From Candidatus Latescibacterota bacterium (GTDB taxonomy: Bacteria > Latescibacterota > UBA2968 > UBA8231), in the NCBI GenBank assembly GCA_965204725.1, contig OZ242005.1, forward strand, positions 160,001 through 224,000: a stretch of 64,000 nt of DNA. Reading direction: 5' to 3'. The notes beneath the pieces were generated by a model, which saw only the letters and a program-made list of their open reading frames with translations, made no database searches and was not told where the DNA came from. The first letter of the stretch is position 1; every line of letters begins with the position of its first letter. Below, piece after piece: positions 10,950 to 49,482 of this stretch. Made by a program: the position numbers and the translations under genes.

Positions 10950-10987
10950 AGTAGCCGGCGATTAAGCCGATGAAGAACGGCGCGGCC
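10950..10987 (-). repeat. 38-bp direct repeat of 15715-15752 (3' part of membrane transporter gene)
   Basis: 36/38 identical, both differences synonymous in the AAPFFIGLIAGY frame. Confidence 0.9.
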
Positions 10988-11022
10988 CGGGAGTAGCGGT
11001 CAGCGGCTAGTCCACTGCCGCA

Positions 11023-11150
11023 CTAGGATTTTTTGCGCGCTTCAAGGGCGCGCTCCAACGGGGGCAAATCCGTCTGCCAGACGATGAGTAAATCCAAATC
11101 GCTGTCCCATTGGCTTATGACCCGTAGCATGGGAGCCGAATAGAACGATT
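11023..11150 (-). pseudogene. Fragment of minimal nucleotidyltransferase (MNT) gene
   Basis: IVLFGSHATG then frameshift then WDSDLDLLIVWQTDLPPLER; no start. Confidence 0.75.
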
Positions 11151-11154
11151 CACG

Positions 11155-11240
11155 CTTTTTGTCGCCGCCAGCGAGGGGGGTAACGGATACGGTGGTCGTG
11201 CCGCTGATTTCGCCGGCCTCAATCGTCAGGCCGCGCAAGA
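11155..11240 (-). repeat. 86-bp inverted copy of 14861-14946 (Ig-repeat surface gene fragment)
   Basis: 81/86 identical, 4 of 5 changes synonymous; LRGLTIEAGEI(S/T)GTTTVSVTPLAGGDKK. Confidence 0.92.
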
Positions 11241-11243
11241 CCG

Positions 11244-11269
11244 TCCCCCCATGCCTCGACACGGGGCGG
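11244..11269. repeat. REP hairpin cccc(a/g)tgcctcgacacgggg
   Basis: Inverse of inner hairpin of composite REPs at 28168 and 43746. Confidence 0.65.
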
Positions 11270-11434
11270 CAAGCCATAAAAGCGTCCGGCCCGAACAACT
11301 GAAATGTTCTTGCGCTTGCGCGGGATATAGACGTGACGCGCCGCTCATTTTCACTTATCTTGCAGGTATGGCCTAAACGCTCTCAGGCCATACCCAAACA
11401 GCCCCCCGAACCCCTCACTCGAAAGGAGTGAATC

Positions 11435-11851
11435 ATGACGGAACAACCCCTCCCCCTCACTCAAACGCAAGACCGTGACCTCCGCCTTGGCCGGTTAGAA
11501 GGCCTTGCCGATCAATTCGTTGAGCAAAGCCGCGAGACCAACGTCCGCTTAGGCCGCATGGAGCAAACCATTGACGCGCAAGGCCGCGAACTGCGGCAAG
11601 AGATCGCCGAGCAAAGCCGCGAGACCAACGTCCGCTTAGGCCGCATGGAGCAAACCATTGACGAACAAGGGCGCGACCTGCGGCAAGCAATCGCCGCACA
11701 AGGAATCCGCATCGACGAACAAGGCAGCGAACTGCGGCAAGAGATTGCCGTGCAAAGTCGGCGGATTGAGGTGCTGACGCGGTGGTTGGTGGGGATGCAG
11801 GTGGCTAGCTTGGTGGCGTTGGGGACGTTGATCTTGGTGCGCTTGCCCTGA
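11435..11851 (+). CDS. Coiled-coil protein with C-terminal TM anchor (DUF1640/CCDC90-like) and 87-bp internal tandem repeat
   Basis: SD aaaggag; EQSRETNVRLGRMEQTID.QGR.LRQ.IA repeated (11522, 11609); hydrophobic tail LTRWLVGMQVASLVALGTLILV. Confidence 0.75.
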   Translation: MTEQPLPLTQTQDRDLRLGRLEGLADQFVEQSRETNVRLGRMEQTIDAQGRELRQEIAEQSRETNVRLGRMEQTIDEQGRDLRQAIAAQGIRIDEQGSELRQEIAVQSRRIEVLTRWLVGMQVASLVALGTLILVRLP

Positions 11852-11859
11852 TCGAGCCG

Positions 11860-12312
11860 CCCCCCCCTACGTCGCCAGCGACGCGACCACAGCCTTCCTG
11901 TCATACTGAGCGTAGCGAAGTATCTCATACCCAACACTCCATACAGAACATCCCTTATAACGGCCTCGAAAGCATGTAAAGATGCTTCGGCTGCGCTGCG
12001 CTGCGCTCAGCAGGACACACAGGCGGCCTTTGCGTGAGGGCTTTTTTCGGCATATTTTAGTGTTTTATGAATGAGCAGGGACGAATCAGGAAGATGGTAA
12101 ATCAACTGAATTATGAGAGGATGTTGGCGGCGGGCCAGCCGACCGCGATGAACGCATCCTGCTTACAACATCAAGACTTAACGATTTGTCGTAACTCATT
12201 GAAAGACAAGCACTTACCCCCCCCCCCCCCCCCCCCCCCCCCACGACACCAGCGACGCGGCCACAGGCTTCCTGCTCCCTGTCATACTGAGCGCAGCGAA
12301 GTATCTCATACC
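11860..12312. repeat. Direct repeat pair (11860-11931, ~12235-12312) containing REP gtcatactgagcg(t/c)agcgaagtatctc, with inverted partner at ~11980-12016
   Basis: C-run + ccagcgacgcg.ccacag.cttcctg + gtcatactgagcg.agcgaagtatctcatacc in both copies. Confidence 0.85.
12192..12242. other. Imperfect palindrome TAACTCATTG-N5-CAAGCACTTA abutting a C26 homopolymer
   Basis: 12192-12216 palindrome, C run 12217-12242. Confidence 0.8.
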
Positions 12313-12496
12313 TCCCCCCCTTTGTGCCCTTTGTGCATTTTGTGGCTCTTTATGCCTTTTCTGCCTATCTTTCGGCCTTTCCCGCACGTTCATAAAAGGA
12401 AACGCAACTTATGCTTGCGAAAATACCCTTTTTAAGCATTTTTGAATGACCTAAACAATGTCTCTATCTAATTTGCATTCCACAGGAGGTTGAACG

Positions 12497-15400
12497 ATGA
12501 CATCCATGAGGCTTTTTGCATCCCGGCCCTACGCCCTTTACCTGCTGGTCTCAGGCTTGCTGCTGGGGTGGGCCGGCTCGGCAACCGCGACCATTACCCT
12601 GTCCGTCGATAAACCGCTAATACGCGAAGAAGACGACAGAGTCGAAATCACCGTGACAGCCGAAAGCGACGAAAACGTGACGGCGAATACGGTGGTCTCC
12701 CTGCAGCTTGGGGCCAAGACTTTCCCAAATGTCAACAATCCAGCAGAGAATCGCCTCCCCAACGGAGTAGGGAATATCTTCCCCGGCAGAACAATAGATG
12801 AACATGGTCGTATTGTGCTTACGTACCGATTGGCCTCAGGGGAACGCGCTGACTATGTAAGCCCGAACGCTCCGTGGTGGGCCTATCGCAATGCGGATCC
12901 TACGAGAGGTTCGATAGCTGCCAACAGGAAGCCGGGGGGGGATTGGAAAGACTGGCTCAATAGTCGCGCCCAGGTCAATAGCCAATTCTCCATCACGCTG
13001 CCGACGTTAGTGATCCCTAAGGACAAGAAAAAGGCGACCGGAACCATTGTCCTCACGAATCTCGATAACGACAAGCACGGTTTTTATAATACGTATGATG
13101 AGTTCACCATTCCTCATCAGCTTGACCTTGACGAGTCCGTTTATTTCTTCAATGGTGCTCTTAGGAACAGGGAGGGTTTTCAACGCCCCTGGGACTCTAA
13201 TTTGTTCAATTTCTACCGAAACCGCCCCCAGCGCGCGCTATCCCGATCTCATCATCAAAATTGACGGCCTTGCCGGTAGCGAGACGGTTAGGCAGACGGA
13301 GATTCGCGTAACGGACGACGAAAAGCTCAGCAGTCAGGTAAACCTTTCGTTTTCGCCGGCTAGTCTGAGCAAGGACGCGGGGCCGACCCCTGTTACCGTA
13401 ACCGCGACCTTAAACGGCTCTACGCTGCGGTCGGACCAAACCTTTACCTTGCTCTATCTGACACAGAGGGATATAACTGATCTCCCCGGCCCTGATTACC
13501 ATCATCTCCCGTTTGATGTTAATGCGTCCGATGTACTGACGCACGATACGGATTACTCGGCGCCGTCCGCGTCGATAACCATACGCCGGAACAAGCCATC
13601 GGGGAAGGCGACGATTACCATCGATCCCAAAGGCAAGGCTGGCCGCATCGCGTTATGGGGGGGGGGCGTCGAAGAAGAAGGTCCTCACAGGCGTTGACTT
13701 GAACCTCGATGGGGACATGAGCGACTCTCTGGCTCTTAGTAAACAATGGGGTTACGTCGCTGGTAATACTCATCGGCCCGACCGCGCCGTTACCTTCACC
13801 GAAGAAGGTCTAGGCTGCACCCCCACGACCCCCGGCGAACCCCTGTCCCAACACGATCTCAACTTTGATGGGCACTGCGACGGCCTTATTCGGGAAGCGT
13901 TAATCGGCGTCGACCTAAACGGTGATGGGACCATTCCTCCAGCGTTGAGAGATGGCCAACCCTTTACCTTCTCTGCCACTACCACACAAAATATCGGGGT
14001 TAATCCTAGTTTTGTTCTATTTGGCACAGACATAAGCTCAGTCCAAAACGGCGGAGCCCAGGTACTGACTGCGATAGCGGCTGGCCGGGTGCCTTGGATC
14101 GCTGACCGGGGTGCTCAGTATAGCCAACAGTTCAGTTTTGGTTATAATACTATCACTCTTCAGCCTGTTGATCCTTCTCGTCCCGCTCCCCAGTATTGGC
14201 CTACGTCGAATCCGAGGTTTGTGTTGGTTGAAAGCCAACTGCCGTACCATGTTGAGCTTCCCCTCCATCTCTTTGAGATAACGGACACCCCCGTTGTCAC
14301 CTTCAAAGACGCGACCGACGGCCTGACCGCCACCCCTTCAACGATCCGCGAGGGCGCCGGTCGGCAAGAAATCGCCCTGAAAGTCACCTTGAAGGCCGCC
14401 ACATCAGCGGATACGCGGGTGACGTTCACCATCACTCCGCAAGAGGGTCGCCGCGACATAGACTACACGGCCGTCTTGAGCGATCTCGTCATTCCCGAAG
14501 GCCAAACCTCCGCTTCAACCACGCTAGTGCTCACCCCGGTCGATAACGAGGTGGTAAACGACGCGCGGACATTCGACGTAGTCGCCACAATCGGCAGTTC
14601 GGACGACGCCCCCGAGGTCACCGAGACGATTACTATTGTAGATGACGAGACCCAGAGCACGCAGATCATGCTGACGGCCAGTCCCGCCGAACTCAAGGCC
14701 GGCACCGGAGCCAACAACGTCACGATCACCGGCACGTTAGACGGCCAAGCCTTCGACAAGGACGTGAACGTAGTCTTAGTCGTCACCACCGACACGGACG
14801 CCGACGGCGACGTGGACGACGCCGATAAAGCCGCCACCCGCGACACCGAATACACCGCCATCTTGCGCGGCCTGACGATTGAGGCGGGCGAAATCACCGG
14901 CACGACCACCGTATCCGTTACCCCGCTTGCCGGCGGCGACAAAAAGATCGGCCTAACCGCGCTGAAAAGCCCGGTCAAGAACAACGACGACGAGGACGTG
15001 ACGGTCACCACAACAGTCATCACCCTGAAAGACGGCGACCCAGAGACGGCCCTGGGCGGCCTCGTTTTCGACGAGGACGTAGATGTCGTCTCCACGGTAT
15101 TTGAATACGTCGTCGGCACGGCCATTGAGCCTTATGTCCTGCCCGCGGCCACCGGCGGCATTGGCGACAAGACCTACAGCGTGTCCGCCACGCTACCAGC
15201 CGGTCTGGTATTCGACGCGGAAACCCGCACCCTGTCGGGCACACCGCTGACAGCGGGCGACGCCACCGTCATCTACACGGTCATCGACAGCGCCCCGGAC
15301 GAAGTCAACACCGCCGTCCTCAGCCTGACCTTTGAGATCGGTACGGCCCCGCCCGCCACCGTGCGCGTCGCCAGCGTAACCTCAACGCATTCGTCCATCC

Positions 15401-15533
15401 GCGAGAACGGCGAGACCACCGCCATCCTCCTGACGGCAACGTTGACCGCTCCCGCCCCCAGTCCGAGACCATCCTGTTCACGATTGCCGCCCCCAGTTCC
15501 GGCACGCCCGCCGTGCGCGACGCCGATTACGCC
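12497..15533 (+). pseudogene. Secreted Calx-beta-like/He_PIG Ig-repeat surface protein, frameshifted three times and 3' truncated
   Basis: SD aggagg, signal peptide ..AGSATA; ORFs 12497-13264, 13047-13697 and 13699-15672 join by single-base changes at C5 13225, G10 13657, C5 15455; RDxDY repeats; LPAATGG..TYS..LPAGLVFD..TRTLSGTP; homology ends after AVRDADYA. Confidence 0.85.
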
Positions 15534-15637
15534 TCTCTCCAACAGAGGCCCCATTTTGCTTGCTAGTGGACGGTACGCAACGCATCGTTTCGGCTTACGA
15601 CCCGCCACCCGCCACCCGCCTGCCAAGGATCAAATCC

Positions 15638-17593
15638 TCACCCGTGCAGAATCGGATGCCCGTTGCCGGTAAAAAACGCCACATCTACGAGGAAGGAGAG
15701 GCCGACGCCGAGAAAGTAGCCGGCGATTAGGCCGATGAAAAACGGCGCGGCCTTGCGGTAGAGTTCAATGCCGCCAAAGCGCATGATCAAGCTCTTGGCC
15801 GCCCACGCGACAAAGATGGCCGCGGCTTGGTTCCGCACCATCCAAACTGCGGAGATGGCCAAGCCCACCGGATGCAGGGGCCACCACGGGAAGCGATACT
15901 GCATGAACGTCAAAACCGCCATGGCCGCAGCGCCGAGGCCGAAAAAGCCCAGCTTTTGCGCGTGCAAGTCGGCCGGGGTTTTTATCTTGGCCATCACATC
16001 GCCAAAGGCCATCACACCGGCGCCGGAGGAAACGCGAAAAATCCAAGAGTTGAAGTTGGAAGCCCCCTGCTCGTAAGCCATGGCAATGAGATTGGTCAGG
16101 GAAATCGCGAAGGATAGGACCACGGCCAAGGCGATGGCCAAGACAAAGCCGCGGCGGGCAATGCGCAGGCTGTGCTGCAACTTGGCGGCGTGCGCGGCCG
16201 AGGGCATGAAGATGGACTGCACGTCGCCGAAAAAGGAATAGGTCAGCCCCAAGGCCGCCAAACCCGTCGGCGAAATGGCGCTGGTGCCCAGCGTCATCAT
16301 CGTCATGGCCTGACTGACGACCGGCGTGGTCAGGTAAAACGCGCCCGTTTGAACCACCAAGCGCGTAATGCCCAAGTAGGCGATGAGCACGCCGGCCAAA
16401 AAGAGCGCGGCCACCGACCATTCCATGCCGGCCTTGTGCAGCCAAGTTAGCATGTAGAACGTGCCCAGCAAAAGGCCCAGCACGGCGGCGCGATAGGACA
16501 GCAACTCGCGGCGGTCGTCAATCGGGCAGGCTGGGTTCCACGCCTTGCGGAACACATCCTTGAGGTGGTCGCGTGCCATCCACAGCCCCCACAGCACGAG
16601 CATCACAAACGCCCCCCAACACTGCCACGAAGTCGAAGGCAGTCCCCAAACGAACTTATCCGCCTCGGTGACGCCGAGGCCAAAGCGGTTGAACAAACCC
16701 TCCTCGAGCAGCGTTAGCAAAAAGAAGAACCAGATACTGAAGGTGACGTTGAGGTTGGCAAAATACATGAAGCCGATGACCGGAAAGTAGAAGCGAATGT
16801 TGATGGTCGGAAAGCCGTGCGCGATTTGGATGGGGTGATGCCACTCGATTTTGGGGAAAAAGTGAAAAAAAAAGCCGACGATGTTCCACAAGACGATGCC
16901 CAAGGGAATGGCCGCCCCGGCCCAGAAGGCTTTGCTGTATAGGACCGCTGGCAACCGGCGGGCACTATCGGCGTTGGCGACGAGGGCTTGGGGCACTTCC
17001 ATCAGCGGGTAGGCCAACCGCTCGCGCTCGACCCACTGTTTGCGGAGGATGACCACCACGCAGAAGCAGACCCAGTACAAAGTCCATAGAAAGCTCAGCC
17101 ACCAAACCAGCGGCATGGCCCAAGCGGCGAGCAAGGTGCTCCACGGAATGGGTTCGCCGAGGGGCAGGCCCTCGAAAAACCAAGTCATGGCCAAGCCGTC
17201 GTTGGACGGCAGCAGCCAAGCGGGCAGGTAGGGCACCACGTAAGTGCCCCATTGATTCTCCGCGGACGCAAAGTAATACGGCGTCGTTGGTATCGCGAGG
17301 AAGTAGCCGATGAGGAAAACCGGGATGCCAGTACAGACCAACCCCATGACGACGACCGTGATCATCTCGGCCGGGCGCAGTGCCCAGTGGGGATTGAGGG
17401 TCTTGAGCAGGGCATTGGCAAAGATGAGGCAAATAAAGAGAAACCCCACCCCAATCGGAAAGAAGGACCAAGTCATCTCGGACGAGCCAAAGGTCCAGAT
17501 CGAGTGCGGCCCCCCCAAGCTGATCAACGCCACCACGGCGCAGCCCACGAACACGGAGCGCCCGGTGACGGCTGTTGCGGGATGGGTTGCCAA
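15638..17593 (-). CDS. Polytopic membrane protein, DUF6785/DUF6784-type putative peptide transporter, copy 2
   Basis: Many hydrophobic segments; LRKQWVERERLAYPL, RFPWWPLHPVG, KAAPFFIGLI. Confidence 0.8.
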   Translation of the reverse strand: MATHPATAVTGRSVFVGCAVVALISLGGPHSIWTFGSSEMTWSFFPIGVGFLFICLIFANALLKTLNPHWALRPAEMITVVVMGLVCTGIPVFLIGYFLAIPTTPYYFASAENQWGTYVVPYLPAWLLPSNDGLAMTWFFEGLPLGEPIPWSTLLAAWAMPLVWWLSFLWTLYWVCFCVVVILRKQWVERERLAYPLMEVPQALVANADSARRLPAVLYSKAFWAGAAIPLGIVLWNIVGFFFHFFPKIEWHHPIQIAHGFPTINIRFYFPVIGFMYFANLNVTFSIWFFFLLTLLEEGLFNRFGLGVTEADKFVWGLPSTSWQCWGAFVMLVLWGLWMARDHLKDVFRKAWNPACPIDDRRELLSYRAAVLGLLLGTFYMLTWLHKAGMEWSVAALFLAGVLIAYLGITRLVVQTGAFYLTTPVVSQAMTMMTLGTSAISPTGLAALGLTYSFFGDVQSIFMPSAAHAAKLQHSLRIARRGFVLAIALAVVLSFAISLTNLIAMAYEQGASNFNSWIFRVSSGAGVMAFGDVMAKIKTPADLHAQKLGFFGLGAAAMAVLTFMQYRFPWWPLHPVGLAISAVWMVRNQAAAIFVAWAAKSLIMRFGGIELYRKAAPFFIGLIAGYFLGVGLSFLVDVAFFTGNGHPILHG

Positions 17594-17600
17594 CGCGGCC

Positions 17601-19586
17601 TCAGCCGTGCAGGATGGGGTGGCCGTTGCCGGGGAAGAAAATCATATCGACGATAAACGAGATCCCCACGCCAAAGAAGTGCCCGAGAATGAGGCCGATG
17701 AAAAACGGCGCGGCCTTGCGGTAGAGCTCGATGCCGCCAAAGCGCATGATCAGGCTCTTGGCCGCCCACGACACAAAAATCGCCGGGGCTTGGTTCCGCA
17801 CCATCCAGATCGCGGAAATCGCCAAGCCCACCGGATGCAGGGGCCACCACGGGAAGCGATACTGCATAAACGTCAAAACCGCCATGGCCGCGGCGCCAAG
17901 GCCGAAAAAGCCCAACTTTTGTGCGTGGAAATCGGCCGGGGTTTTTATTTTGCTCAGCGCGTCGTCAAAGGAGCGCACCCCCGCGCCCGAGGAGACGCGG
18001 AAAAACCAAGAGTTGAAGTTGGAGGCCCCCTGCTCGTAGGCCATGGCAATGACGTACACAATGGCGGCGACAAAGCCGACCACTAGGGCCAGTGCAATGG
18101 CCAAGCACAGGCCGCGGCGGCTCATCCGCATGGCGTCGTGCAGCCGGGCGGCATGGGCGGCCGACGGCATGAAAATCGACTGCACATCGCTGAAGAACCC
18201 ATAACTCATCCCCAAGGCCGCCAAGCCCGTCGGCGAAATCGCACTCGTGCCAAAGGTCATCATGGTCATGGCTTGGCTGACTACGGGCGTCGTCAGGTAA
18301 AAGACGCCGGCCTGCACCACCAAGCGGGTGATGCCCAAGTAGGCAATGAGCACGCCGCCCAAGAAAAACGCGGCTACCGACCATTCCATGCCAGCTTTGT
18401 TGAGCCACGCCAGCATATAGACGACCCCGACCAATAGGCCGACGACCGCACTGCGATAGGACATCAACTCGCGGCTGTCGTCAACCGGATGGGCGGGATT
18501 CCACGCTTTGCGCGCCACGTCTTTTAGGTGATCGCGCGCCATCCACAGCCCCCACAGCACCAGCACCACAAAAGCCCCCCAGCACTGCCAAGACGTCGAG
18601 GGCAAGCCCCACACGAAGTTGTCCGCCTCGGTGACGCCCACGCCAAAGCGGTTGAACAGCCCCTCTTCGACCAGCAGCAACAAAAAGAAGAACCAGATAC
18701 TGAAGGTGACGTTGAGGTTGGCGAAATACATGAAGCCGACGACCGGGAAGTAGAAGCGAATGTTGATCGTGGGAAAGCCGTGCGCGATTTGGATGGGATG
18801 GTTCCATTCGATCGTGGGAAAAAAGTGAAAGAAAAAGCCGACGATGTTCCACAAGACGATGCCCAACGGAATAGCCGCCCCCAGCCAAAAGACCTTGTTG
18901 CGCAAAACGGCGGGCACACGCGCCGGGCCATCGGCGTCCGCCACGAGGGCTTGGGGCACTTCCATCAGCGGATAGGCCAGCCGCTCGCGCTCGACCCACT
19001 GCTTGCGCAATATGACGACCAAGCAAAAACAGACCGCGTACAAGGTCCAGATAAAGCTCAGCCACCAAAACAGCGGCATGGCCCACGCATCAAGCAAGGT
19101 GCCCCAAGGCATCGGCTCGCCCAAGGGTAGCCCCTCGAAGAACCAAGTCATGGCCAAACCGTCGTTGCTCGGCAACAGCCACGCCGGCAGGTAGGGCAAC
19201 ACGTAGGTTCCCCACTGGTTTTCAGCCGAGGCAAAGTAGTAGGGCGTAGTGGGGATCGACAGCACGTAGCCCATCATAAAGATGGGGATGCCGGTCGTCA
19301 CCAAGCCCATGACGACGACCGTGATCATCTCGGCCGGGCGCAAAGCCCAGCCGGGGTTGATCGTCTTGAGCAGGATGTTGAGCAGGATGAGGCAGCAGAA
19401 CGAGAAGCCGACCGCAATCGGAAAGAACGACCACGTGATTTCGGACGACCCCAAGACCCAAATGGCGTAGGGCGCACCCAAACACACCACGAGGACTTGG
19501 ACGACGCCGAGCACCAACGAGCGGAGCGTGAGGCCGCTAGCCGCGCCTCGGTGCTGGGTAGGGGCCGCAGTCGGCGAAGTCATCAA
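17601..19586 (-). CDS. Polytopic membrane protein, DUF6785/DUF6784-type putative peptide transporter, copy 1
   Basis: Close tandem paralog of 15638-17593; LTLRSLVLG N-terminus and the same motifs. Confidence 0.8.
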   Translation of the reverse strand: MMTSPTAAPTQHRGAASGLTLRSLVLGVVQVLVVCLGAPYAIWVLGSSEITWSFFPIAVGFSFCCLILLNILLKTINPGWALRPAEMITVVVMGLVTTGIPIFMMGYVLSIPTTPYYFASAENQWGTYVLPYLPAWLLPSNDGLAMTWFFEGLPLGEPMPWGTLLDAWAMPLFWWLSFIWTLYAVCFCLVVILRKQWVERERLAYPLMEVPQALVADADGPARVPAVLRNKVFWLGAAIPLGIVLWNIVGFFFHFFPTIEWNHPIQIAHGFPTINIRFYFPVVGFMYFANLNVTFSIWFFFLLLLVEEGLFNRFGVGVTEADNFVWGLPSTSWQCWGAFVVLVLWGLWMARDHLKDVARKAWNPAHPVDDSRELMSYRSAVVGLLVGVVYMLAWLNKAGMEWSVAAFFLGGVLIAYLGITRLVVQAGVFYLTTPVVSQAMTMMTFGTSAISPTGLAALGMSYGFFSDVQSIFMPSAAHAARLHDAMRMSRRGLCLAIALALVVGFVAAIVYVIAMAYEQGASNFNSWFFRVSSGAGVRSFDDALSKIKTPADFHAQKLGFFGLGAAAMAVLTFMQYRFPWWPLHPVGLAISAIWMVRNQAPAIFVSWAAKSLIMRFGGIELYRKAAPFFIGLILGHFFGVGISFIVDMIFFPGNGHPILHG

Positions 19587-19637
19587 AAGCCAACTTCAGA
19601 GGCACTGCGAGCGGGATTCAACACACCCAAGCATCTC

Positions 19638-38994: not shown

Positions 38995-39142
38995 TGAGCG
39001 GACATCCCTTTACGCGGGTTGGTATCGCTATACATACAAAAGGATAATATGCCAGCGTCTAAGAGGCGCAAGTCCAAGCCGAAATCGACGCGGTGCTGGG
39101 CATCGGCTAACTAACGCGAGGCCAGACCTGTCCACCGCGGCC

Positions 39143-42100: not shown

Positions 42101-43720
42101 CTGCGTGGTCGGCTCGGTAGCCAGCACCACGGTGTAGCTTTTCGTGCCCCCGGCCTCATCGGCTATGTGAATGTCGCTCGCCGAAAACGACAACGCCGGG
42201 CTTGGCGCGGCCTCATTGTCGATGAGGCCGACGGTCATCGTATGGGTAAGGCCGTCGTAGTCCGCACCGCTTGCAGTAAACTTGATGGTCGCCTGCCGAC
42301 TAGCCCCTTGGTTGTACTCCGTATCTTCCACCCCGGAAAATGTCACGTTCTGCTTGGTCTTCCAGTTCGATGACGTAAAACTCAACGACGTTTTATCCAT
42401 AGTCACCAGAGTCGGGTCCTGATTGGTGAGGTTTATCGTGACATTCCCCTTGGGTTGGCTCGTTATCCACACCTTTTGAGTAACGGTCCCGCCCTCACGG
42501 ACGCTCAAAGACGAGTCGCGAACCTGTATGGTCGTCTGTTCATTGCTTGCCACAGCGACTCGCACTATGCCGCTGACATTGTTGTAGTTCCCGCCGCTCG
42601 CAGTGTGGGTGATCGTCGTCCGCCGTCCGAACTCATCGGCTACATCGTCATCAACCGCTGTCACGGTGATCGTCTGCGCTGTGTTCCAGTTCATTGTGGT
42701 GAAAGTCAAGCTCGAAGTTGACACCGTCGCCACGGTCTGATCGCTGTTCGACACCGCCACGGTGACCTGCACGGTCGGCTCGGCAGCCAGCACCACGGTG
42801 TAGCTTTTCGTGCCCCCGGCCTCATCGGCTATGTGAATGTCGCTCGCCGAAAACGACAACGCCGGGCTTGGCGCGGCCTCATTGTCGATGAGGTCGACGG
42901 TCATCCTAAGAGTAAAGCCGTCGTAGTCCGCATCGCTTGCAGTAAGCTTGATGGTCGCACGCCGACGAGCCCCACCGTTGTACTGAGTGTCTTCTACCCC
43001 AGAAAACGTCACGTCCTGCTTGGTCTCCCAGTTCGATGGCGTAAAACGCAACGACGTTTTATCCATGGTCACCAGCGTCGAGTTCTGATTGGTGAGGGTT
43101 ATCGTGACAATCCCTTTAGGTTCGCTCGTGATCCACACCTTTTGAGTAACGGTGCCGCCCTCGCGGACGCTCAAAGACGAGTCGCGAACCTGTATGGTCG
43201 CTTGGTCATCGTCTTGCACAGTGACTCGCACCGTGCCGCTGACATTGTTATAGCCCCCGCCGCTCGCAGTGTGAGTGATCGTCGTCCGCCGTCCGAACTC
43301 ATCGTCTATGTCGTCATCAACCGCTGTCACGGTGACCGTCTGCGCTGCATTCCAGTTCATTGTGGTGAAAGTCAAGCTCGAAGGAGATACCGTCGCCACG
43401 GTCCGGTCACCACTCGACACCGCCACGCTGACCGGCCCGGTCGGCTGGGTAGCCAGCACCACAGTATAACTCGTCGTGCCGGCGGCCTCACTGGCTATGT
43501 GAACGTTGCTCGCCGAAAACGTCAACGCCGGCGTGGTCTGCGCGTAGAGGGGGGCCGCGACGACGAGCGCGTACGCCAGACCGACAAACGCGCTGCCCAT
43601 TCGCCGACGCACGAGGAGATGTCTGCTACACCTTCGCAAGGGAGCCACAAACCGCACAAGGCCGGCGCTGCGGGGGCGCGTCAGACGACGGCTGCTTCCT
43701 ACAAAGGCTTTACTGACCAT
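39143..43720 (-). CDS. Large secreted Ig-repeat protein (3x Calx-beta-like pairs, 4x He_PIG-like, duplicated unknown domain, FlgD-Ig/T9SS-like CTD)
   Basis: LTFT..NWN.AQTVTVTAVDD repeats; LP.ATGGD.PL.YSL..LPDGL.F repeats; NYPNPFNPTTTI..NALGQVVRTL..SGIYFYRL. Confidence 0.9.
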   Translation of the reverse strand: MVSKAFVGSSRRLTRPRSAGLVRFVAPLRRCSRHLLVRRRMGSAFVGLAYALVVAAPLYAQTTPALTFSASNVHIASEAAGTTSYTVVLATQPTGPVSVAVSSGDRTVATVSPSSLTFTTMNWNAAQTVTVTAVDDDIDDEFGRRTTITHTASGGGYNNVSGTVRVTVQDDDQATIQVRDSSLSVREGGTVTQKVWITSEPKGIVTITLTNQNSTLVTMDKTSLRFTPSNWETKQDVTFSGVEDTQYNGGARRRATIKLTASDADYDGFTLRMTVDLIDNEAAPSPALSFSASDIHIADEAGGTKSYTVVLAAEPTVQVTVAVSNSDQTVATVSTSSLTFTTMNWNTAQTITVTAVDDDVADEFGRRTTITHTASGGNYNNVSGIVRVAVASNEQTTIQVRDSSLSVREGGTVTQKVWITSQPKGNVTINLTNQDPTLVTMDKTSLSFTSSNWKTKQNVTFSGVEDTEYNQGASRQATIKFTASGADYDGLTHTMTVGLIDNEAAPSPALSFSASDIHIADEAGGTKSYTVVLATEPTTQVTVAVASSDQTVATVSASSLTFTTMNWNTAQTVTATAVDDDVADEFGRRTTITHTASGGDYNNVSGTVRVVVANNEQVDIRVFDSSLSVREGGTVTQKVWITSEPKGNVTINLTTNQDPTLVTMDKTSLSFTPSNWKTKQNVTFSGVEDTEYNAGPRRRATFRFTASGADYDGRTLEMTVGLIDNDVVGPPAASPPVSSVPPVSSVPPSSFEDRFPAFADTAMIADLVAEVHQPIAPRKLPKATGGDPPLTYSLLGNLPDSLMFHADTRQLRGTPTTETDSAETMIYRVRDANYDADSLLFTITVTPPDLKPSFGDASIPALFAEVDQAVVWPLPSATGGDPPLRYSLWDLPDSLVFNAVKRQLVGAAMATDTTVATYAAIDADGDVATLPFPITIISPDLVPTFGDATLADLFAEVDRAIAPRTLPQAIGGNDPLTYSFLNLPDGLVFNAVKRQLGGAATATDTTVATYMATDADGDAATLLCTITIVPSDLEPTFGDATIEPLTATACQAVARPLPAATGGNGPLTYSLRNLPDGLVFNANSRQLKGSPAVLGDEGRMIAYTSIYAATDADGDAATLPFSITVQMGLDAPDWMRAENYLGADRAGGWDGSVLLTWALSRNHALLDAYRIYREVRMTHSADEHGRVVALDQPRAEFVPWARIDAVPGVSVGSALVKTLDYRATRWAVAAECGGQRACLRVAGDPGSGCRVGCPRDAPEWVRAEDYLGADLAGGWRGSVLLTWALPSEHAAVDAYRIYREVWMTHSADEHGRVVALAEPRAEFIPWARVDAVPGVSVGSALVQTLDYRATRWAVAAECGGQRTYLRITSGTNGAARPKAVSSEVRLNPQGAQDVAVLLPEAFAFTEQDAALKSQAAPVAQSAMTATEGRVGSIGKFALGPNYPNPFNPTTTIQYGLPQAAAVQLTVHNALGQVVRTLVAEHQSAGHYAVNYDGRDDHGQPLASGIYFYRLQAGSISRVEKMVLLR
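41545..43532 (-). repeat. Three tandem 666-bp intragenic repeats
   Basis: caacgccgg anchors end at 43531, 42865, 42199 (period 666). Confidence 0.92.
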
Positions 43721-43745
43721 ATAGCAATCCTACATCATTGCAAGA

Positions 43746-43800
43746 CTGGATTCCCCCCCCGTGTCGGGGCACGGGGGGAACGTTCTTGCGCGGGAAGGAC
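43746..43800. repeat. Composite REP with nested hairpin
   Basis: ctggattccc-ccccgtgtcggggcacgggg-..gcgggaaggac. Confidence 0.85.
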
Positions 43801-43840
43801 AGCTTAAACGGGTTCGGATAGAACGATATTACGCGGTGCC

Positions 43841-44095
43841 CTACTCGGCTCGGTCTAACAGGAGCCTAAAGGCGTCAAGGCTCGGCACCTGTATAGCCTC
43901 CCGATGCAACTGCTTGAGGCGCTGCACATCGTCGGTGGCCTCAATGCGAGCGGCCAACGGATCCGACGCAGCCAGCCCAAAGCGAATCTCTAGCACCTCA
44001 AGCAGAGCTTCAATGGTGCGTTCTCGGCCGCCCTGCTTAATCCCCTGCTCAATGCCCTTTTCCGTGAAATACTGCGCTACCGACGACTCGTACAT
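43841..44095 (-). CDS. Putative intragenic Rpn-S small protein (84 aa)
   Basis: In-frame ATG (MYESS) preceded by GAGGAGG at 5 nt spacing, just before GIEQG repeats. Confidence 0.65.
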   Translation of the reverse strand: MYESSVAQYFTEKGIEQGIKQGGRERTIEALLEVLEIRFGLAASDPLAARIEATDDVQRLKQLHREAIQVPSLDAFRLLLDRAE

Positions 44096-44728
44096 AGTTT
44101 CCTCCTCGATGATGGTCATAATCGTCTCTAAGTTATACACCAACCCACTTAACATCGCAAGATCGGCCATATAATTGGCCTTGCGGCTCTCGTCCATCGG
44201 CACCTGTTGCGCCCGGTTGACGCACTGGCGTAGCCATCCTTCGGCGTCCATCCCCTCAGGCGGCTGCATCAGTGGCGCAAACGGCAGCAAGCCCGAAGGC
44301 CCCGCGGCGAGGATGCGTTGGCCATCTATCTCGATCAGCCGAATGACCTTGTATTGGACTAAGACGCGGTAGCCGCGCCGCTCTTGGACGTAGTAGCCCG
44401 GATCGTTTCGGCCGGCGTCTGGACGGAGATAGATGACGTTGGAATAGATCGGCCGGCGGTGTTGCTCAATGCCGCGTCCGATATAGCCGGCCATGCGGAG
44501 CGGCATAGGGGGGTTGCTGTCGGTGGTTTGGAACTCGTGATGGACCAACGCCTTCTGATCGCCAATTTTGACGCGGATGAGGCTGTCGGTGCGGTGGGTT
44601 TCGACGGTGGTTTGCTCGGTATCGACGACGCCGAGGATTTGGATGTCGTCTTGCTGGAGGGCGAAGCGGGCGAAGTCTGCCGGGTAGGTGTGGATGAGGT
44701 GTTTGGCGATGGTGTCGAATTCGGCCAT
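43841..44728 (-). CDS. Rpn family recombination-promoting nuclease-like (PD-(D/E)XK) protein
   Basis: FD..AK.L, RTDSL..HHEFQT..MPLRMAGY, LLPFAPLM, C-terminal EKGIEQGIKQG..LEVLEIRFG. Confidence 0.88.
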   Translation of the reverse strand: MAEFDTIAKHLIHTYPADFARFALQQDDIQILGVVDTEQTTVETHRTDSLIRVKIGDQKALVHHEFQTTDSNPPMPLRMAGYIGRGIEQHRRPIYSNVIYLRPDAGRNDPGYYVQERRGYRVLVQYKVIRLIEIDGQRILAAGPSGLLPFAPLMQPPEGMDAEGWLRQCVNRAQQVPMDESRKANYMADLAMLSGLVYNLETIMTIIEEETMYESSVAQYFTEKGIEQGIKQGGRERTIEALLEVLEIRFGLAASDPLAARIEATDDVQRLKQLHREAIQVPSLDAFRLLLDRAE

Positions 44729-44774
44729 GGGTTTTGCCTTGGTTGCGGGTGGGGTGGGCTGGTATGTGCAACCG

Positions 44775-44789
44775 GCAAGAATCGTGCCA
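44775..44789 (-). promoter_or_regulatory. Putative sigma54 -24/-12 promoter upstream of rpn
   Basis: TGGCAC-GATTC-TTGC, 46 nt before ATG. Confidence 0.55.
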
Positions 44790-44904
44790 CGGCGGCGGCT
44801 CATAGGGGAGGGCTGGGGATCGGCGGCGTGGGTGTGTAGCGAAAAGGGGACAGGCGTGGGGCGTTGGGGAGAAAGTTTGACTGGCTTCCCGCATGACCCA
44901 AAGT

Positions 44905-44922
44905 GGGTTCTCAGACAGCCTC
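44905..44922. mobile_element. Solo IS5/IS1031-like terminal inverted repeat
   Basis: gggttctcagacagcctc, 16/18 to MITE end at 1343-1360, followed by TTA (stop of aldolase gene). Confidence 0.6.
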
Positions 44923-46074
44923 TTACATTTTTCTAACCTCGTCAAAGAACGTCTTAAAGGAGCCCGTGGCGGCGTGATCCCAACGGTCAAAGGTCGCTTG
45001 CAGCACGGCTAGCCAACGCTCTTTGGGCAGGCTTTGCACCGCTAAGCAGACGTAATAGGCATCGGTCAACGCCAAGCCGCGTCGCCCCTCCACGAGGGCT
45101 TGCTCTATGCGCTCGACCCATGGCGTCACCTCGGGCAAGGCTTCGACGCACCGCGCCTTGTGCTGGACAAAGTTGGCCAAGTGTTTGACCAAGCTCCGGC
45201 TGACGTCGTGCCGCTTTGCCGTGCCGGATACGTCGTTGAGGTCCAACTCGCCCCGGTGATACAATGCCAACAACTGCTGAGTGAGCGTGCGTTGCTGAGC
45301 ACTAACGGTTGCTTGCCGAGCGCGGCGCAAGCCACTGGTGAGGGCTGACATCTCGTGGCAGCAGTTGAGCCAGCGCACCCCTTTGGAGACCACCGAGCGC
45401 ATGGACGCGCCCGGGCCGACAGCCGTGCCCATGGCCTTGCCGCTGGCCGCACACGCCGCCCCCACGCGGCTGAAGGCCTCCTGCACGCGCTCGTGGTCTA
45501 TGTGGGGGACGCCGGCGCGCTCGACGCCGTAGCTGTGCGCCAAGTCGCTCGGCCCCACGAAGAGCAAGTCGATTCCTTCAACCGCGGCAATCGCTTCCAC
45601 CGCCTCCACGCCCTCGGCGTCTTCGATCATCACGCCGAGCAAGGTCTCGGCATCGGCCCTTCCCATGTACTCGGCCGAATCGAGCGTCCCGTAGTCCGAA
45701 TCCCGGCCGCAGCCTACGCCGCGCAAGCCCAGCGGCCGGAACTTGGCCATCCGCACGAAGGCGCGTGCTTCGTCGGCACTCTTGCAATGGGGCCAAACCA
45801 ACCCCTCGGCCCCTAACTCCAGCGGCTTGATCACTTGGTTGTACGGTCCCTTGGGGATGCGAACCACGGAATTGACCCCGGTGGCTCGCGCCGCCAAAAT
45901 CAGCGGCGAAAGCGCGTTTAGCTCTAGATGGGAATGCTCCATGTCGATCCAGACGCAGCCAAAACCCGCTTGGGCGGCCAGCTCGACTACGACCGGGTCG
46001 AAGATCCGGTTGATTTCGACGACCTCTACCGTCGCCCCTCCGAGCAGGGCGGCCTTAGTCTGATTGGTTTTCAC
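44923..46074 (-). CDS. HpcH/HpaI aldolase family protein with ~125-aa C-terminal extension
   Basis: VWIDMEH, VVRIP, KFRPLGLRG, MIEDAEGV, LFVGPSDL; SD ggagg + GTG. Confidence 0.9.
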   Translation of the reverse strand: MKTNQTKAALLGGATVEVVEINRIFDPVVVELAAQAGFGCVWIDMEHSHLELNALSPLILAARATGVNSVVRIPKGPYNQVIKPLELGAEGLVWPHCKSADEARAFVRMAKFRPLGLRGVGCGRDSDYGTLDSAEYMGRADAETLLGVMIEDAEGVEAVEAIAAVEGIDLLFVGPSDLAHSYGVERAGVPHIDHERVQEAFSRVGAACAASGKAMGTAVGPGASMRSVVSKGVRWLNCCHEMSALTSGLRRARQATVSAQQRTLTQQLLALYHRGELDLNDVSGTAKRHDVSRSLVKHLANFVQHKARCVEALPEVTPWVERIEQALVEGRRGLALTDAYYVCLAVQSLPKERWLAVLQATFDRWDHAATGSFKTFFDEVRKM

Positions 46075-46173
46075 GATGCCTCCTAATTGGCGTACCCTGC
46101 TCGCTTTCTCAGGGCGTTTTTTCTATATTCGCCCACTTGTCAACGCCCATTGTAAAATCACAGGAGACCTGTT

Positions 46174-46905
46174 ATGGCAGCAAGTGGACCCGTTCCCGCC
46201 GCCCGCGCCCAAGGCCGTGGCCCCACCATCTGGCTGGCCGGATCGCCCGACGAGCTAAAGGAGTGGATGCCCCTCGGAATCGCCGGAATCGTCACCAACA
46301 CGGTGGTGCTCAACCAATACGCCCAGCAATGCGGCTCGGTCATCGGCCTGATAGAGCAATACCTCGCGCTCACCGACAAGCCCGTGGTGGTGGAAATCGA
46401 CGGGCACTGCGTTGAAGAGCTTTTGGAAGTCGGGGAAGTTTTCACCAACTTGTCCGATCAGATCATCCTCAAGATACCCTGCAACGTCAACGGACTCAAA
46501 GCATTCAGCATCCTCAAGGACCGCGGGGTCGAGACCTTCTGTACCACGGTGTTCTCCCTGACGCAAGCCGCGGCCGTCGCCCAAGCCGGGGTCAATCACA
46601 TCTTGCCGTTCTGCGAGCCTGTTAAGGAAGTGGGCGGCGACCCGACCAAGCTGATCCGCGAGTGCGCCCAAATGTTCGGCGGCTGGGGCCAGCGGCCCTT
46701 CATTATGGCCGCCCTCATCCGCTCGGTGGAGACCGCGCACGCCGCCTTCCGCGACGGGGCCGACGAGCTGGTCACCATGTGGACGGTGTACCGCGACATG
46801 ATGGACCACCCGCTAACCGCCCAGTGGAACAAGACCTTTATGGACGAGTGGATCGACATGCACCAGAGCGGCTTGTTGGAGGGCGTCCCCGTCCGCTCCC
46901 ACTGA
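46174..46905 (+). CDS. Transaldolase/fructose-6-phosphate aldolase family, divergent
   Basis: GIVTN, IILKIP (Schiff-base Lys), TTVFSLTQA, IMAALIRS, MDHPLT. Confidence 0.85.
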   Translation: MAASGPVPAARAQGRGPTIWLAGSPDELKEWMPLGIAGIVTNTVVLNQYAQQCGSVIGLIEQYLALTDKPVVVEIDGHCVEELLEVGEVFTNLSDQIILKIPCNVNGLKAFSILKDRGVETFCTTVFSLTQAAAVAQAGVNHILPFCEPVKEVGGDPTKLIRECAQMFGGWGQRPFIMAALIRSVETAHAAFRDGADELVTMWTVYRDMMDHPLTAQWNKTFMDEWIDMHQSGLLEGVPVRSH

Positions 46906-46912
46906 CGCGACG

Positions 46913-46961
46913 CGCCCTCACCCGCGCTCGGCCGGGATCTGGCGCAGCAATTCGCTCCAAG
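46913..46961 (+). repeat. 49-bp direct repeat, left copy (duplicate of hpcH-like gene 3' end)
   Basis: 48/49 identical to 49434-49482. Confidence 0.95.
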
Positions 46962-46991
46962 GGGAACTCAACATCAACCAAGGAGTTCGTC

Positions 46992-49403
46992 ATGTTCAGT
47001 CAAGCCTTTGTAGGAATCAGTCGTCGGTCTGGCGTTCGCGCTCGTCAGTCGTCGGTCTGGCGTTCGCGCTCGTCAGTCGTCGGTCTGGCGTTCGCGCTCG
47101 TCGTCGCGGGAACCTTCGGGCCGTATCCGCTCTACGCGCAGGATGGTGGTACGCCCCCACCGCCGGACTTGTCGTTGTCGACAAGCATTATCGAAATATC
47201 TGAGGGCGACACGGGGACCTACGCCGTGGTCCCCGTTGGTCAGACGACCGGGATTGTCACCGTGATGGTGTCAACTGGCGACCCTAATGTAGCGACGGTA
47301 TCGCCTTCGATATTGGTCTTCAGCCCACCGACGTACAGTGAAACGTCGGTAACGGTGAGAGCGATTGATAACGATATAGTCAATCCGCCCCGGAGTACGA
47401 CGATCACCCACACTGCGACTGGCTACCCCTCCCGCACATTGGTCGTCCGCGTGACAGACGATGAGGCGAGCATATCTGAACCTTATGTCCCGGAGAATCT
47501 GCTGCCGGCTTTCGCGGACACCGCGATGATTGCCGACCTCGTCGCCGAGGTCCGCCAACCGATTGCCCCGCGGAGACTGCCTAAGGCCACTGGCGGCGAC
47601 CCCCCGCTGACCTATAGCTTGCTCGGCAACCTGCCAGATGGCTTGATGTTCCACGCCGCCACCCGCCAGTTGCGGGGCACTCCCACCACCGAAACCGACA
47701 GCGCCGAGACCATGATTTACAGGGTCCGCGATGCCAACTATGATGCCGATACTCTGATGTTTGCCATCACGGTCACGCCCCCGGATCTAAAACCGTCCTT
47801 TGGCGACGCGAACATTCCCGCTCTGTTCGCCGAAGTGAACCAAGCGGTTGTTTGGCCCCTGCCGGCGGCCACCGGCGGCGATCCCCCGCTGCGGTATAGC
47901 CTGTCCAACCTGCCGGACGGCTTGGCACTCAACCCGGTGTGGCAACAGTTGCAGGGTGCGGCGACAGCCACGGACACGACCATCGCCGCCTATACAGCTA
48001 CGGATGTCGATGGCGATACAGCGACGTTGACGTTTGCCGTCACCATCATCAACCCAGACCTAACGCCGACCTTTGGCGACGCGAGGGTGGCCGATCTCGT
48101 CGTCGAGGTGGACCAAGCGATTGATCCGGTGGACCTGCCGGCCGCTGGCGGCGGCAACGGTCCGCTGCGATATAGCCTGTCGAACCTGCCAGACGGCTGG
48201 GCGTTCCATGCCGCCACCCGCCAGTTGCGCGGCGCAGCGACAGCCCCCGACACGATCACCGCCACCTACACGGCCACCGACGCCGACGGCGATGCGGCCA
48301 CCCTGACGTTTACCATCGTCATCATCGCCCCGGATCTAACGCCCGCCTTTGGCGACGCGACGCTTGGGCTGCTGACGGCGACCGCTTGCCAAGCGATTGA
48401 TTGGACGCTGCCGGCCGCCAGTGGCGGCAACGACCCGCTGACGTATAGTCTGTCAAACCTGCCGGACGGCCTTGTGTTCCACGCCGACACCCGCCGGTTG
48501 CAGGGCATTCCCACAGCCCTGAGCGACGAGGGCCAGACGATCACCATACAGGGAACCTACACGGCGCAAGATGCCGACGGCGATGCAGCCACCCTGCCCT
48601 TCACTCTAACGGTCTATACTGGATTGGATGCTCCCGATTGGGTGCGAGCCGAAAACTACCTCGGGGCCGATAGCACGGGTACTTGGGGCGGCTCGGTGCT
48701 GCTGACGTGGGCTTTGCCGAGTCAGCATGCCGGCGTGGACGCTTACCGCATTTACCGCGAGGTGCGGATAACGCACAGCACCGACGAGCACGGTCAGTTG
48801 GTCGCGCTGGACGAACCCCGCGACGAGTTCGTCCCGTGGGCTCGGGTGGATGCGGTGCCGGGCGTTTCGGTGGGGCGCGCCCTCGTGCGGACGCTGGATT
48901 ATCAGGCGACCCGCTGGGCGGTAGCTGCCGAGTGCGGCGGCCAGCGCACCTCCTTGACGGTCGCCCAAGCCAAAGCAGTGCCCCGCGACAGGGCCGCGCT
49001 GCTGCCGCAAGCCTTCGTCTTTGCCCAGCAGGGCGCGGCTCCGCCGCCGAAACGCCAAGCGGTCGTGCAATCGGCCATGACCACCACCGAAGGGCGCGTC
49101 GGGGCCATCCACCCCAGCACCCCGGCCGCATTGGCCCTCGGCCCCAACTATCCCAACCCGTTCAACCCGGCCACGACGATTCAATACTGGCTGCCGCAAG
49201 CTGCCGAGGTGCAGTTGACCATTCACAATGCCTTAGGGCAGGTGGTCCGCACCCTCGTGGCCGAGCATCAGTTCGCGGGTCGCTACGCCGTCAACTACGA
49301 CGGGCGCGACGACCACGGGCAGCCCTTGGCGGCGGGGCTATACTTCTACCGGCTGCAAGCCGGCCCGGTTTCTCAGGTCGGGAAGATGGTCCTGCTCAAG
49401 TAG
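46992..49403 (+). CDS. Secreted Ig-repeat protein (1 Calx-beta-like, 4 He_PIG-like, FlgD-Ig/T9SS-like CTD), paralog of 39143-43720
   Basis: SD aaggag + ATG 46992; near-identical PAFADTAMIADL.. block; NYPNPFNPATTI CTD. Confidence 0.9.
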   Translation: MFSQAFVGISRRSGVRARQSSVWRSRSSVVGLAFALVVAGTFGPYPLYAQDGGTPPPPDLSLSTSIIEISEGDTGTYAVVPVGQTTGIVTVMVSTGDPNVATVSPSILVFSPPTYSETSVTVRAIDNDIVNPPRSTTITHTATGYPSRTLVVRVTDDEASISEPYVPENLLPAFADTAMIADLVAEVRQPIAPRRLPKATGGDPPLTYSLLGNLPDGLMFHAATRQLRGTPTTETDSAETMIYRVRDANYDADTLMFAITVTPPDLKPSFGDANIPALFAEVNQAVVWPLPAATGGDPPLRYSLSNLPDGLALNPVWQQLQGAATATDTTIAAYTATDVDGDTATLTFAVTIINPDLTPTFGDARVADLVVEVDQAIDPVDLPAAGGGNGPLRYSLSNLPDGWAFHAATRQLRGAATAPDTITATYTATDADGDAATLTFTIVIIAPDLTPAFGDATLGLLTATACQAIDWTLPAASGGNDPLTYSLSNLPDGLVFHADTRRLQGIPTALSDEGQTITIQGTYTAQDADGDAATLPFTLTVYTGLDAPDWVRAENYLGADSTGTWGGSVLLTWALPSQHAGVDAYRIYREVRITHSTDEHGQLVALDEPRDEFVPWARVDAVPGVSVGRALVRTLDYQATRWAVAAECGGQRTSLTVAQAKAVPRDRAALLPQAFVFAQQGAAPPPKRQAVVQSAMTTTEGRVGAIHPSTPAALALGPNYPNPFNPATTIQYWLPQAAEVQLTIHNALGQVVRTLVAEHQFAGRYAVNYDGRDDHGQPLAAGLYFYRLQAGPVSQVGKMVLLK
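47017..47102 (+). repeat. Three perfect 28-bp tandem repeats within signal peptide coding region
   Basis: tcagtcgtcggtctggcgttcgcgctcg at 47017, 47045, 47073. Confidence 0.95.
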
Positions 49404-49433
49404 GACCAAGGTGCTTATGGACGAGTTGCTTGC

Positions 49434-49482
49434 CGCCCTCACCCGCGCTCGGTCGGGATCTGGCGCAGCAATTCGCTCCAAG
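49434..49482 (+). repeat. 49-bp direct repeat, right copy
   Basis: Covers stop and last 13-14 codons of 49439-50224. Confidence 0.95.

Follow-up and report, generated by a model that had tools for sequence, protein, structure and literature searches.

How does a gene for a surface protein come to lie between two convergent genes, bracketed by direct repeats that copy the 3' end of one of them, with no recombinase encoded beside it? The question is raised by two adhesin loci, here called locus 1 and locus 2, in a 64,000-nucleotide (nt) stretch of the genome of a sponge-associated Candidatus Latescibacterota bacterium (G000), which corresponds to C1:160001-224000 of an assembly of two contigs (5.43 Mb, 60% G+C) and is referred to below as the window. 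Bare positions are window coordinates and those prefixed C1: are contig coordinates; the comparison set comprised 31 genomes in the genus, among which G046 is consistently the closest relative to G000 by flanking genes. A preliminary description of the window had proposed that a mechanism either trans-acting or driven by homology moves and reshuffles adhesin cassettes docked at the 3' ends of convergent genes. The arbitrary ends of the inserted cargo and the microhomology at its junctions point instead to illegitimate recombination, and we put the probability that the insertions arose by illegitimate, microhomology-mediated insertion of segments copied from related genomes, and not through a dedicated docking machine, at roughly 0.6. 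The proposed adhesin-docking system thereby gives way to a more general picture, with better support, in which many kinds of genes in this lineage enter tight gene junctions by illegitimate joining, the duplicated gene end being the scar of the insertion.

Comparison with relatives identifies locus 2 as a true insertion beside the 3' end of a convergent gene, with a long flanking duplication. The adhesin gene lies between a transaldolase-like gene (TAL) and an HpcH/HpaI aldolase gene (HpcH), and the two repeat copies that frame it (Table 1) are identical at 48 of 49 positions and are the only two in the genome. TAL and HpcH abut in all 11 relative loci retrieved via the aldolase (L002-L012), and in each of these both repeat copies of the window map to one stretch, which in 9/11 loci is at most 8 substitutions away from the 49-mer. 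G009 and G001 add the same empty TAL-HpcH arrangement, giving an empty site with the 49 bp present once in 13/13 relatives examined, G046 excluded. Orthologues of HpcH are present at 76 to 95% amino acid identity in 23/24 same-genus genomes, the best match in G015 reaching 33%. A match to the insert at full length, or to its 5' end, was found only in G000 and G046 among the 31 genomes, and Pfam searches of the window open reading frames (ORFs) revealed no integrase or recombinase gene in or near it. The adhesin itself retains a C-terminal sorting domain (FlgD_ig and Por_Secre_tail), a trait of type IX secretion cargo. The preliminary description had both adhesin loci bracketed by a repeat taken from a gene 3' end or from close to it; this holds for locus 2, with its consistently empty sites, but fails at locus 1, where the cassette has other boundaries (~11155/15631) and the repeat is present in relatives that have no adhesin.

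The G000 assembly is metagenome-derived with an estimated contamination of 9.97%, and a run of ten G residues at locus 1 is a plausible homopolymer error, which would suit the view that repeats and inserts are artifacts of assembly. We consider this scarcely credible. Contigs from runs of other studies span both locus-2 junctions, X12 covering 46000-47046 and 49302-50300 with 0 differences and X5 covering 46582-47046 and 49411-49678, which argues that the structure is not an assembly artifact, and homologous inserts are present in the independent G046 and G021 assemblies. The locus-2 stretch occurs in public runs from sponge and marine metagenomes. Among the k-mer contigs of 4 runs, a type of contig that drops rare variants, none joining 46961 to 49483 is listed, and scans of metagenome contigs with the 5' end of the cassette and with the 3' end of TAL matched 0 stretches.

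The allele of G046 provides clues to how the locus-2 junctions formed. This genome has a homologous adhesin at the same TAL/HpcH site that is only 76% identical across the insert, and in the alignment the TAL sequence beside the insert is far more similar between the two genomes than the insert is. G046 has no left repeat copy, and both of its junctions are unlike those of G000. Copy 1 in G000 matches the only copy in G005 with 0 mismatches, and a single base separates it from copy 2, which suggests that the duplication postdates the divergence of G000 from G046. The left junction in G000 falls on CCAAG, the final five bases of the 49-mer (the HpcH 3' end), which recur upstream of the cassette in G046; with G046 as a stand-in for the donor, they constitute a microhomology of a few nucleotides between target and donor. 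At the right end, the spacer at 49416-49427 has a 12-nt match, TTATGGACGAGT, to the 3' coding region of TAL (46839-46850), ~70 nt upstream of the site, and this shared 12-mer may be a short templated patch. Together, the data fit a course of events in which a G046-like allele entered an empty site, one end joining by homology within HpcH and the other by microhomology 49 bp into the homologous stretch.

Locus 1 has a longer history. The 38-bp match between 10950-10987 and 15715-15752 from which the preliminary description set out does exist (36/38 identical, extending to 53 bp at 85%), but its right copy (15715-15767) sits 77 nt inside the first DUF6785 gene, not at the gene end, and its left copy predates the adhesin; a third copy at 17678 is explained by the tandem arrangement of the DUF6785/DUF6784 paralogs. 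We compared ten relatives' loci around the DUF6785 pair, and none of them contains the adhesin cassette. The CotH/FlgD_ig gene (6818-9592) lies 69 to 216 bp from the DUF6785 stop in G045, G001, G019, and G044, and the gap is ~1.18 kb in G002, G013, G011, and G012, compared with 4.5 kb in G007; upstream of the DUF6785 gene of G046, the nucleotidyltransferase piece alone matches the window. In the gaps of relatives the DUF4143 gene survives as remnants, and 6/10 loci include the nucleotidyltransferase piece (11035-11149). The fragment at 10950-11002 recurs in G007, G013, and G002, all of which have no adhesin at this site, and in G013 the relic is longer, extending through a DUF6785-type 3' end as far as its stop codon, with intact HEPN and nucleotidyltransferase genes (Pfam) between it and the working DUF6785 gene. 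The repeat at 10950 is thus the decayed left copy of a ~110-bp duplication left by the insertion of a toxin-antitoxin-like pair. On this comparison the locus-1 repeat is older than the adhesin and belongs to the HEPN/nucleotidyltransferase cargo, and the adhesin cassette came later, in G000 only.

The later cassette took the place of ~105 bp of target, the 5' part of the nucleotidyltransferase gene among them, and no duplication flanks it; illegitimate joining has thus led to deletion as well as to duplication. Its adhesin is defective and belongs to a family found at no fewer than 6 other loci in G000; homology to the paralogs ends at 15533/15540, and a 3' part of ~1.4 kb with the sorting domain is missing. 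The run of ten G residues (13657-13666), described earlier as a frame switch, is there as reported, but in the broken copy only: five aligned paralogs are 4 nt shorter at this position and the sixth is 7 nt shorter, with a G run in 0/6, and an assembly homopolymer error is a plausible account of its length.

The geometry of locus 2, with direct repeats at both insert ends that overlap the 3' end of the target gene, recurs at three other sites in G000, and these four recent events were compared with relatives. At the ClpX gene, the flanks overlap on one copy in 25/30 relatives, which are empty; in the more distant G015-G017 and G024 the flanks are on one contig and overlap by about one repeat length, and in G018 they are on two contigs. 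The insert is unique to G000 among the 31 genomes. Its cargo is a mosaic: the first 86 bp correspond to the 3' end of an unrelated gene, A (C1:4085032-4085913), and stretches of 233 and 65 bp correspond to gene B, the neighbor of A, the A and B fragments being 91 to 98% identical to the genes at C1:4085.8-4086.5 kb. The junction falls on AAAAT, common to the target and to gene A, with the genome's own gene A as the stand-in for the donor. Both cargo ends are matched 135 bp apart at another locus in G044. Since the cargo carries fragments of A and B, it appears to have been copied together with its flanks from an A-Mrr-B locus in a related genome. At the second site (C1:441308/449282), precise empty sites are found in G046, G019, and G007, and the cargo is 92 to 94% identical to the region immediately upstream. 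The third, on a HepT-like gene, is precisely empty in nine relatives; G021 has the same insert and keeps both repeat copies, and in G019 the repeat at this left junction measures at least 69 bp. A fifth candidate, at a CobW gene (C1:2554139-2562663, L051), has no clean single-copy empty site in relatives and was left out of the verified events; its 8.4-kb island, with a 96-bp repeat on the CobW 3' end, encodes a protein kinase and several ankyrin-repeat proteins, and the content of this hot spot differs among relatives.

That the pattern is tied to adhesins, as first proposed, is not borne out across the genome. A k-mer scan of G000 for isolated two-copy direct repeats (28 to 120 bp, 0.3 to 12 kb apart) found 38 pairs, of which 5 overlap a gene with the FlgD_ig domain. 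Proteins with a C-terminal domain of this type are encoded by at least 148 genes in a profile search of the genome, these surface-protein genes make up ~6% of its sequence, and the overlap expected by chance for such spans is ~14% on a rough estimate, so there is no adhesin enrichment; the same geometry is also seen with non-adhesin cargo. Among the 31 pairs spaced at least 1 kb apart, ~12 were judged by eye to place one of their copies over a neighboring gene's 3' end, and their cargo varies. Annotated pairs beyond those compared with relatives include, for example, C1:82177/83779, C1:704737/709257, and C1:3900377/3902080. A per-gene scan for flanking repeats (score of at least 25; 14/148 FlgD_ig genes versus 52/1552 controls) was discarded as a test because its top scorers were the ends of tandem paralogs and because it missed locus 2, where the stop-to-stop frame overran the repeat.

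Enzymes of DNA recombination, transposition, and joining were inventoried with Pfam models run on G000, an assembly of 94% completeness in which zero matches are not proof of absence. The genome has 3 matches to tyrosine recombinases, 1 partial match to a Y1 transposase, and 25 matches to DDE_Tnp_1 transposases, which belong to a few multicopy insertion sequences and all lie outside the window; serine recombinases, rve integrases, the reverse transcriptase RVT_1, and Ku each had 0 matches. The preliminary description had recognized no integrase, transposase, or reverse transcriptase in the window, and no domain of these three kinds was found by Pfam in the 45 window ORFs scanned. Nor did Pfam detect a recombinase or transposase domain in the ORFs of at least 90 amino acids (aa) in the verified inserts, and inspection by eye only revealed no shared repeat motif or terminal inverted repeats at the verified sites. 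Retroposition of mRNA was considered, all genes in each insert being co-oriented, and was dropped because RVT_1 has no match in the genome and the cargo differs from any resident copy; nonhomologous end joining via Ku was likewise rejected, with no Ku match in the genome.

These counts bear on the possibility that the inserts are cassettes lacking an integrase, on which a site-specific recombinase from some other locus acts in trans, with the repeats as attL and attR, as in mobilizable islands. Integrase-borne islands sit in the 3' ends of tRNA or protein genes, where their direct repeats rebuild the end of the target gene, and the inserts of G000 resemble them in restoring the target 3' end and in carrying accessory cargo that includes surface and defense genes. 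The overlap of the repeats with gene 3' ends is classic attachment-site geometry, the three tyrosine recombinases could supply the activity, and the TAL/HpcH site is filled in two genomes with differing junctions. Unlike such islands, however, the inserts have no integrase in or beside them, no conserved ends or common core, and repeats that are unrelated from site to site: the four verified repeats, of 29 to 68 bp, have no motif in common, and the cargo ends are arbitrary, including fragments of unrelated genes. The locus-1 cassette came in with a deletion and without a repeat, three enzymes are too few for many unrelated sites, and a serine recombinase is not among the genome's matches. We therefore regard movement in trans as very improbable.

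An enzyme of an unrecognized kind, with a long and variable stagger, might instead insert arbitrary DNA at gene ends throughout the genus, and could be analogous to the IS1634/IS1549 transposases or linked to the abundant DUF4143 ATPases. IS1634 and IS1549 are insertion sequences that reportedly make long direct repeats of variable length, and the target duplications described here are likewise long and of variable length; one genome holds at least four recent events and one old one, with duplications from 29 to ~110 bp, and has its 25 DDE transposase matches to draw on. Genes for DUF4143 proteins also adjoin 3 of the repeat-flanked loci (window 9691-10947, C1:703560-704789, and C1:3902202-3903356). 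In IS1634 and IS1549, however, the duplication flanks an insertion sequence with a transposase and terminal repeats; the verified inserts have neither a transposase nor terminal inverted repeats, and their junctions show microhomology. The DUF4143 genes are themselves accessory and gather in variable spots. Such an enzyme seems to us rather improbable.

Illegitimate insertion is favored because the repeats vary in length (29, 49, 61, and 68 bp at the four sites) and are unrelated in sequence, the cargo ends are arbitrary, 5-nt microhomology is present at both of the junctions that were judged, and duplication and deletion both occur; the arbitrary boundaries are plainest in the mosaic ClpX cargo, and the variable outcome in the ~105-bp replacement at locus 1. 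We hypothesize that DNA enters a tight gene junction either by template switching at a fork or by recombination in which one end joins through homology and the opposite end illegitimately. If the strand rejoined upstream of its point of departure, a stretch of the target would be copied twice, 29 to 68 bp in the recent events and ~110 bp in the old one; if it rejoined downstream, target DNA would be lost, as at locus 1. Selection would then retain those events in which the duplicate restores the flanking gene's 3' end and leaves both neighbors intact, and filled alleles would spread or vanish among related strains via ordinary homologous recombination. The insertions, their empty sites, the duplications, the varied and in one case mosaic cargo, and the lack of a recombinase in the inserts are observed; which enzymes act and which genome gave DNA to which are what we infer here, and sequence cannot tell apart fork template switching, one-sided homologous plus illegitimate recombination, and single crossover of a circularized fragment as routes to the join. 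Fork stalling and template switching or microhomology-mediated break-induced replication (FoSTeS/MMBIR) is a model that comes mainly from eukaryotes. It predicts microhomology junctions, short templated patches from nearby, and a flanking duplication when synthesis resumes upstream, all of which resemble the present case; unlike in that model, the template here must be foreign, since the cargo is 6 to 24% diverged from any copy in the genome.

The nearest bacterial precedent is homology-facilitated illegitimate recombination, described in naturally transformable bacteria and in conjugation in Escherichia coli, where junctions show microhomology of 3 to 10 bp (PMC3240628). As in that process, foreign DNA (linear there) is integrated without an enzyme encoded by the element, with arbitrary cargo ends and, here, 5-nt microhomology at two junctions; a one-sided homologous anchor is plausible in our data at locus 2 only. 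Several points weigh against illegitimate insertion as the explanation. The published process usually yields deletions, not duplications, and deletes about as much recipient DNA as it inserts (PMC3240628), whereas four events here duplicated 29 to 68 bp. The presumed donors are inferred from relatives, and microhomology was judged in two events, at a single junction apiece. Four recent long duplications in one genome may exceed the rate of random illegitimate events, and two independent hits at TAL/HpcH (in G000 and G046), or one hit followed by rearrangement, would also fit a site-directed process. Finally, the genome has 28 AAA_14/DUF4143 genes, of which 3 stand beside repeat-flanked loci compared with ~0.15 expected on a rough estimate.

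The patchy distribution of filled sites bears on a further possibility, that the inserts are mobile islets that need no recombinase: recombination between the repeats would free a circle carrying one repeat, and a single crossover in short homology would reinsert it at empty sites in other cells. The HepT site is filled in G000 and G021 and not in the closer G046, and locus 2 of G000 has the structure expected if a circle had been excised at CCAAG from a locus like that of G046. A homology of 29 to 68 bp is close to the minimum for RecA-dependent recombination, which counts against this route; double crossover via long flanks would be far more efficient at spreading filled alleles; and the first arrival of each cargo beside its target is left unexplained. 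There is a precedent for the final step, in that circles carrying a short homologous piece were integrated in E. coli by Campbell-type single crossover, with the homologous segment directly duplicated on both sides of the insert (109 to 950 bp; PMC3240628). Those circles came from an engineered plasmid, whereas for the present inserts a circular donor is not known. On balance we find mobile islets unlikely. A combined scenario, in which adhesins, nucleases, toxin-antitoxin pairs, and perhaps eukaryote-like proteins are gained repeatedly by recombinase-independent copy-in that leaves 3'-end duplications of 29 to ~110 bp, after which the islets loop out and reenter empty sites by short homology, mobile without an enzyme of their own, is a speculative extension that we also doubt.

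Illegitimate insertion calls for caution in predicting islands in metagenome-assembled genomes, because its scars are easily taken for the attachment sites of mobile islands. If insertions with long duplications are unusually frequent here, the genus would offer a natural system for the gain of surface and defense genes by uncultured symbionts without classical mobile elements. The features on which the analysis draws are collected in Table 1.

Table 1. Positions of the features discussed, in window coordinates unless prefixed C1:
Feature	Position	Strand	Remarks
AAA_14/DUF4143 ATPase gene	9691-10947	+	Pfam; accessory, absent here in 4/10 relatives, remnants in 4/10
DUF6785/6784 gene 3' coding-end relic	10950-11002	.	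Left copy of old ~110-bp target duplication
Nucleotidyltransferase (MNT-type) gene 3' remnant	11023-11154	-	5' part replaced by adhesin cassette
Locus-1 adhesin cassette	~11155-15631	+	Only in G000 at this site; boundaries from relatives
Inverted adhesin fragment, 86 bp	11155-11240		Inverted copy of the cassette's own sequence
Coiled-coil ORF	11435-11851		Within locus-1 cassette
Adhesin pseudogene	12497 to ~15540		Two frameshifts, without C-terminal domain
Tandem DUF6785/DUF6784 membrane-protein genes	15638-19586	-	Paralogs at 15638-17593 and 17601-19586
Inverted paralog, 1525 aa	39143-43720	-	Tandem module expansions; within variable island 36887-44931
TAL_FSA (transaldolase-like) gene	46174-46905	+	Pfam PF00923; left flank of locus 2
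Repeat copy 1	46913-46961	.	Noncoding; copy of last 44 nt of HpcH gene including stop codon, plus 5 nt past stop
Inserted segment, 2472 bp	46962-49433	+	30 nt with ribosome-binding site, one adhesin gene, 30 nt downstream
Surface-protein gene	46992-49403	+	Signal peptide, 4 He_PIG Ig-like repeats, FlgD_ig/Por_Secre_tail C-terminal domain (Pfam)
Three perfect 28-bp tandem units	47017-47102	+	Within signal-peptide coding region
Repeat copy 2	49434-49482	.	Working HpcH gene 3' end
HpcH/HpaI aldolase gene	49439-50278	-	Pfam PF03328; convergent right flank
ClpX site, perfect 61-bp repeat of ClpX 3' end	C1:4515824/4518108 (L049, C1:4515824-4518168)		Cargo: Mrr-type nuclease gene and unknown ORF
Perfect 68-bp repeat	C1:441308/449282		Cargo: 1675-aa PKD/fn3/cadherin-like protein, FlgD_ig protein, nucleotidyltransferase; adjoins another DUF6785 gene
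29-bp repeat on HepT-like gene 3' end	C1:1119353/1123771		Cargo: 1421-aa protein, no Pfam match

Diversification of the adhesins, which the preliminary description had joined to their movement, is by our reading of the repeats an ordinary matter of tandem module duplication in genes with Ig-like repeats and of recombination between paralogs. The inverted third paralog with its module expansions was confirmed and contains internal repeats of 3 x 666 bp, 2 x 378 bp, and 3 x ~276 bp. It belongs to an island between a PhyH gene and an HpcH paralog that is absent in G007 and G009; in G019 the island includes a Schlafen/AlbA_2 gene and three tandem adhesin copies, two of them followed by a 320-aa gene of no known function, and adhesin copy number differs among genomes.

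The locus-2 adhesin has in its 5' coding region a tandem array, 3 x 28 bp, whose unit is not a multiple of 3, as in phase variation. Since only multiples of three units preserve the frame, the array could serve as a slipped-strand on/off switch of the surface protein. The earlier claim of a frame switch thus stands as to the perfect array and the frame shift that one unit gained or lost would cause, but the gene, with its ATG at 46992, is in frame as assembled. The joint 47026>47079 inside the array is present in 3/4 runs, where contigs built from 31-letter words break and cannot count the units, and the adhesin of G046 has no tandem array at this position.

The remaining observations concern the surroundings of locus 1 and the organism. 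Short, dispersed, REP-like repeats in the locus-1 cassette (11231-11276, 11899-11958, 11970-12026, and 12277-12312), including a hairpin-like pair, have dozens of copies in the genome, and a poly-C tract of 26 nt (12217-12242), one of three C26 runs in the genome, lies upstream of the adhesin. The coiled-coil ORF, which includes 87-bp tandem repeats, encodes a 138-aa protein that carries a membrane anchor at its C terminus and has no Pfam family above threshold, and the gene is kept upstream of adhesin paralogs at C1: 1929.5, 3706, 4923, 3701, 5210, and 4917 kb. Insertions recur at the 3' ends of DUF6785/DUF6784 genes (C1:83828-85732, C1:449356-451335, and window 15638-19586), with repeat-flanked or replaced segments just downstream of such genes at three separate loci. 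Elsewhere in the window, a TonB-dependent receptor with a CarboxypepD_reg domain (4528-6804) and a DUF4249 gene (3585-4775), together with the many sorting-domain proteins, suggest an organism with an outer membrane, of FCB-group type.

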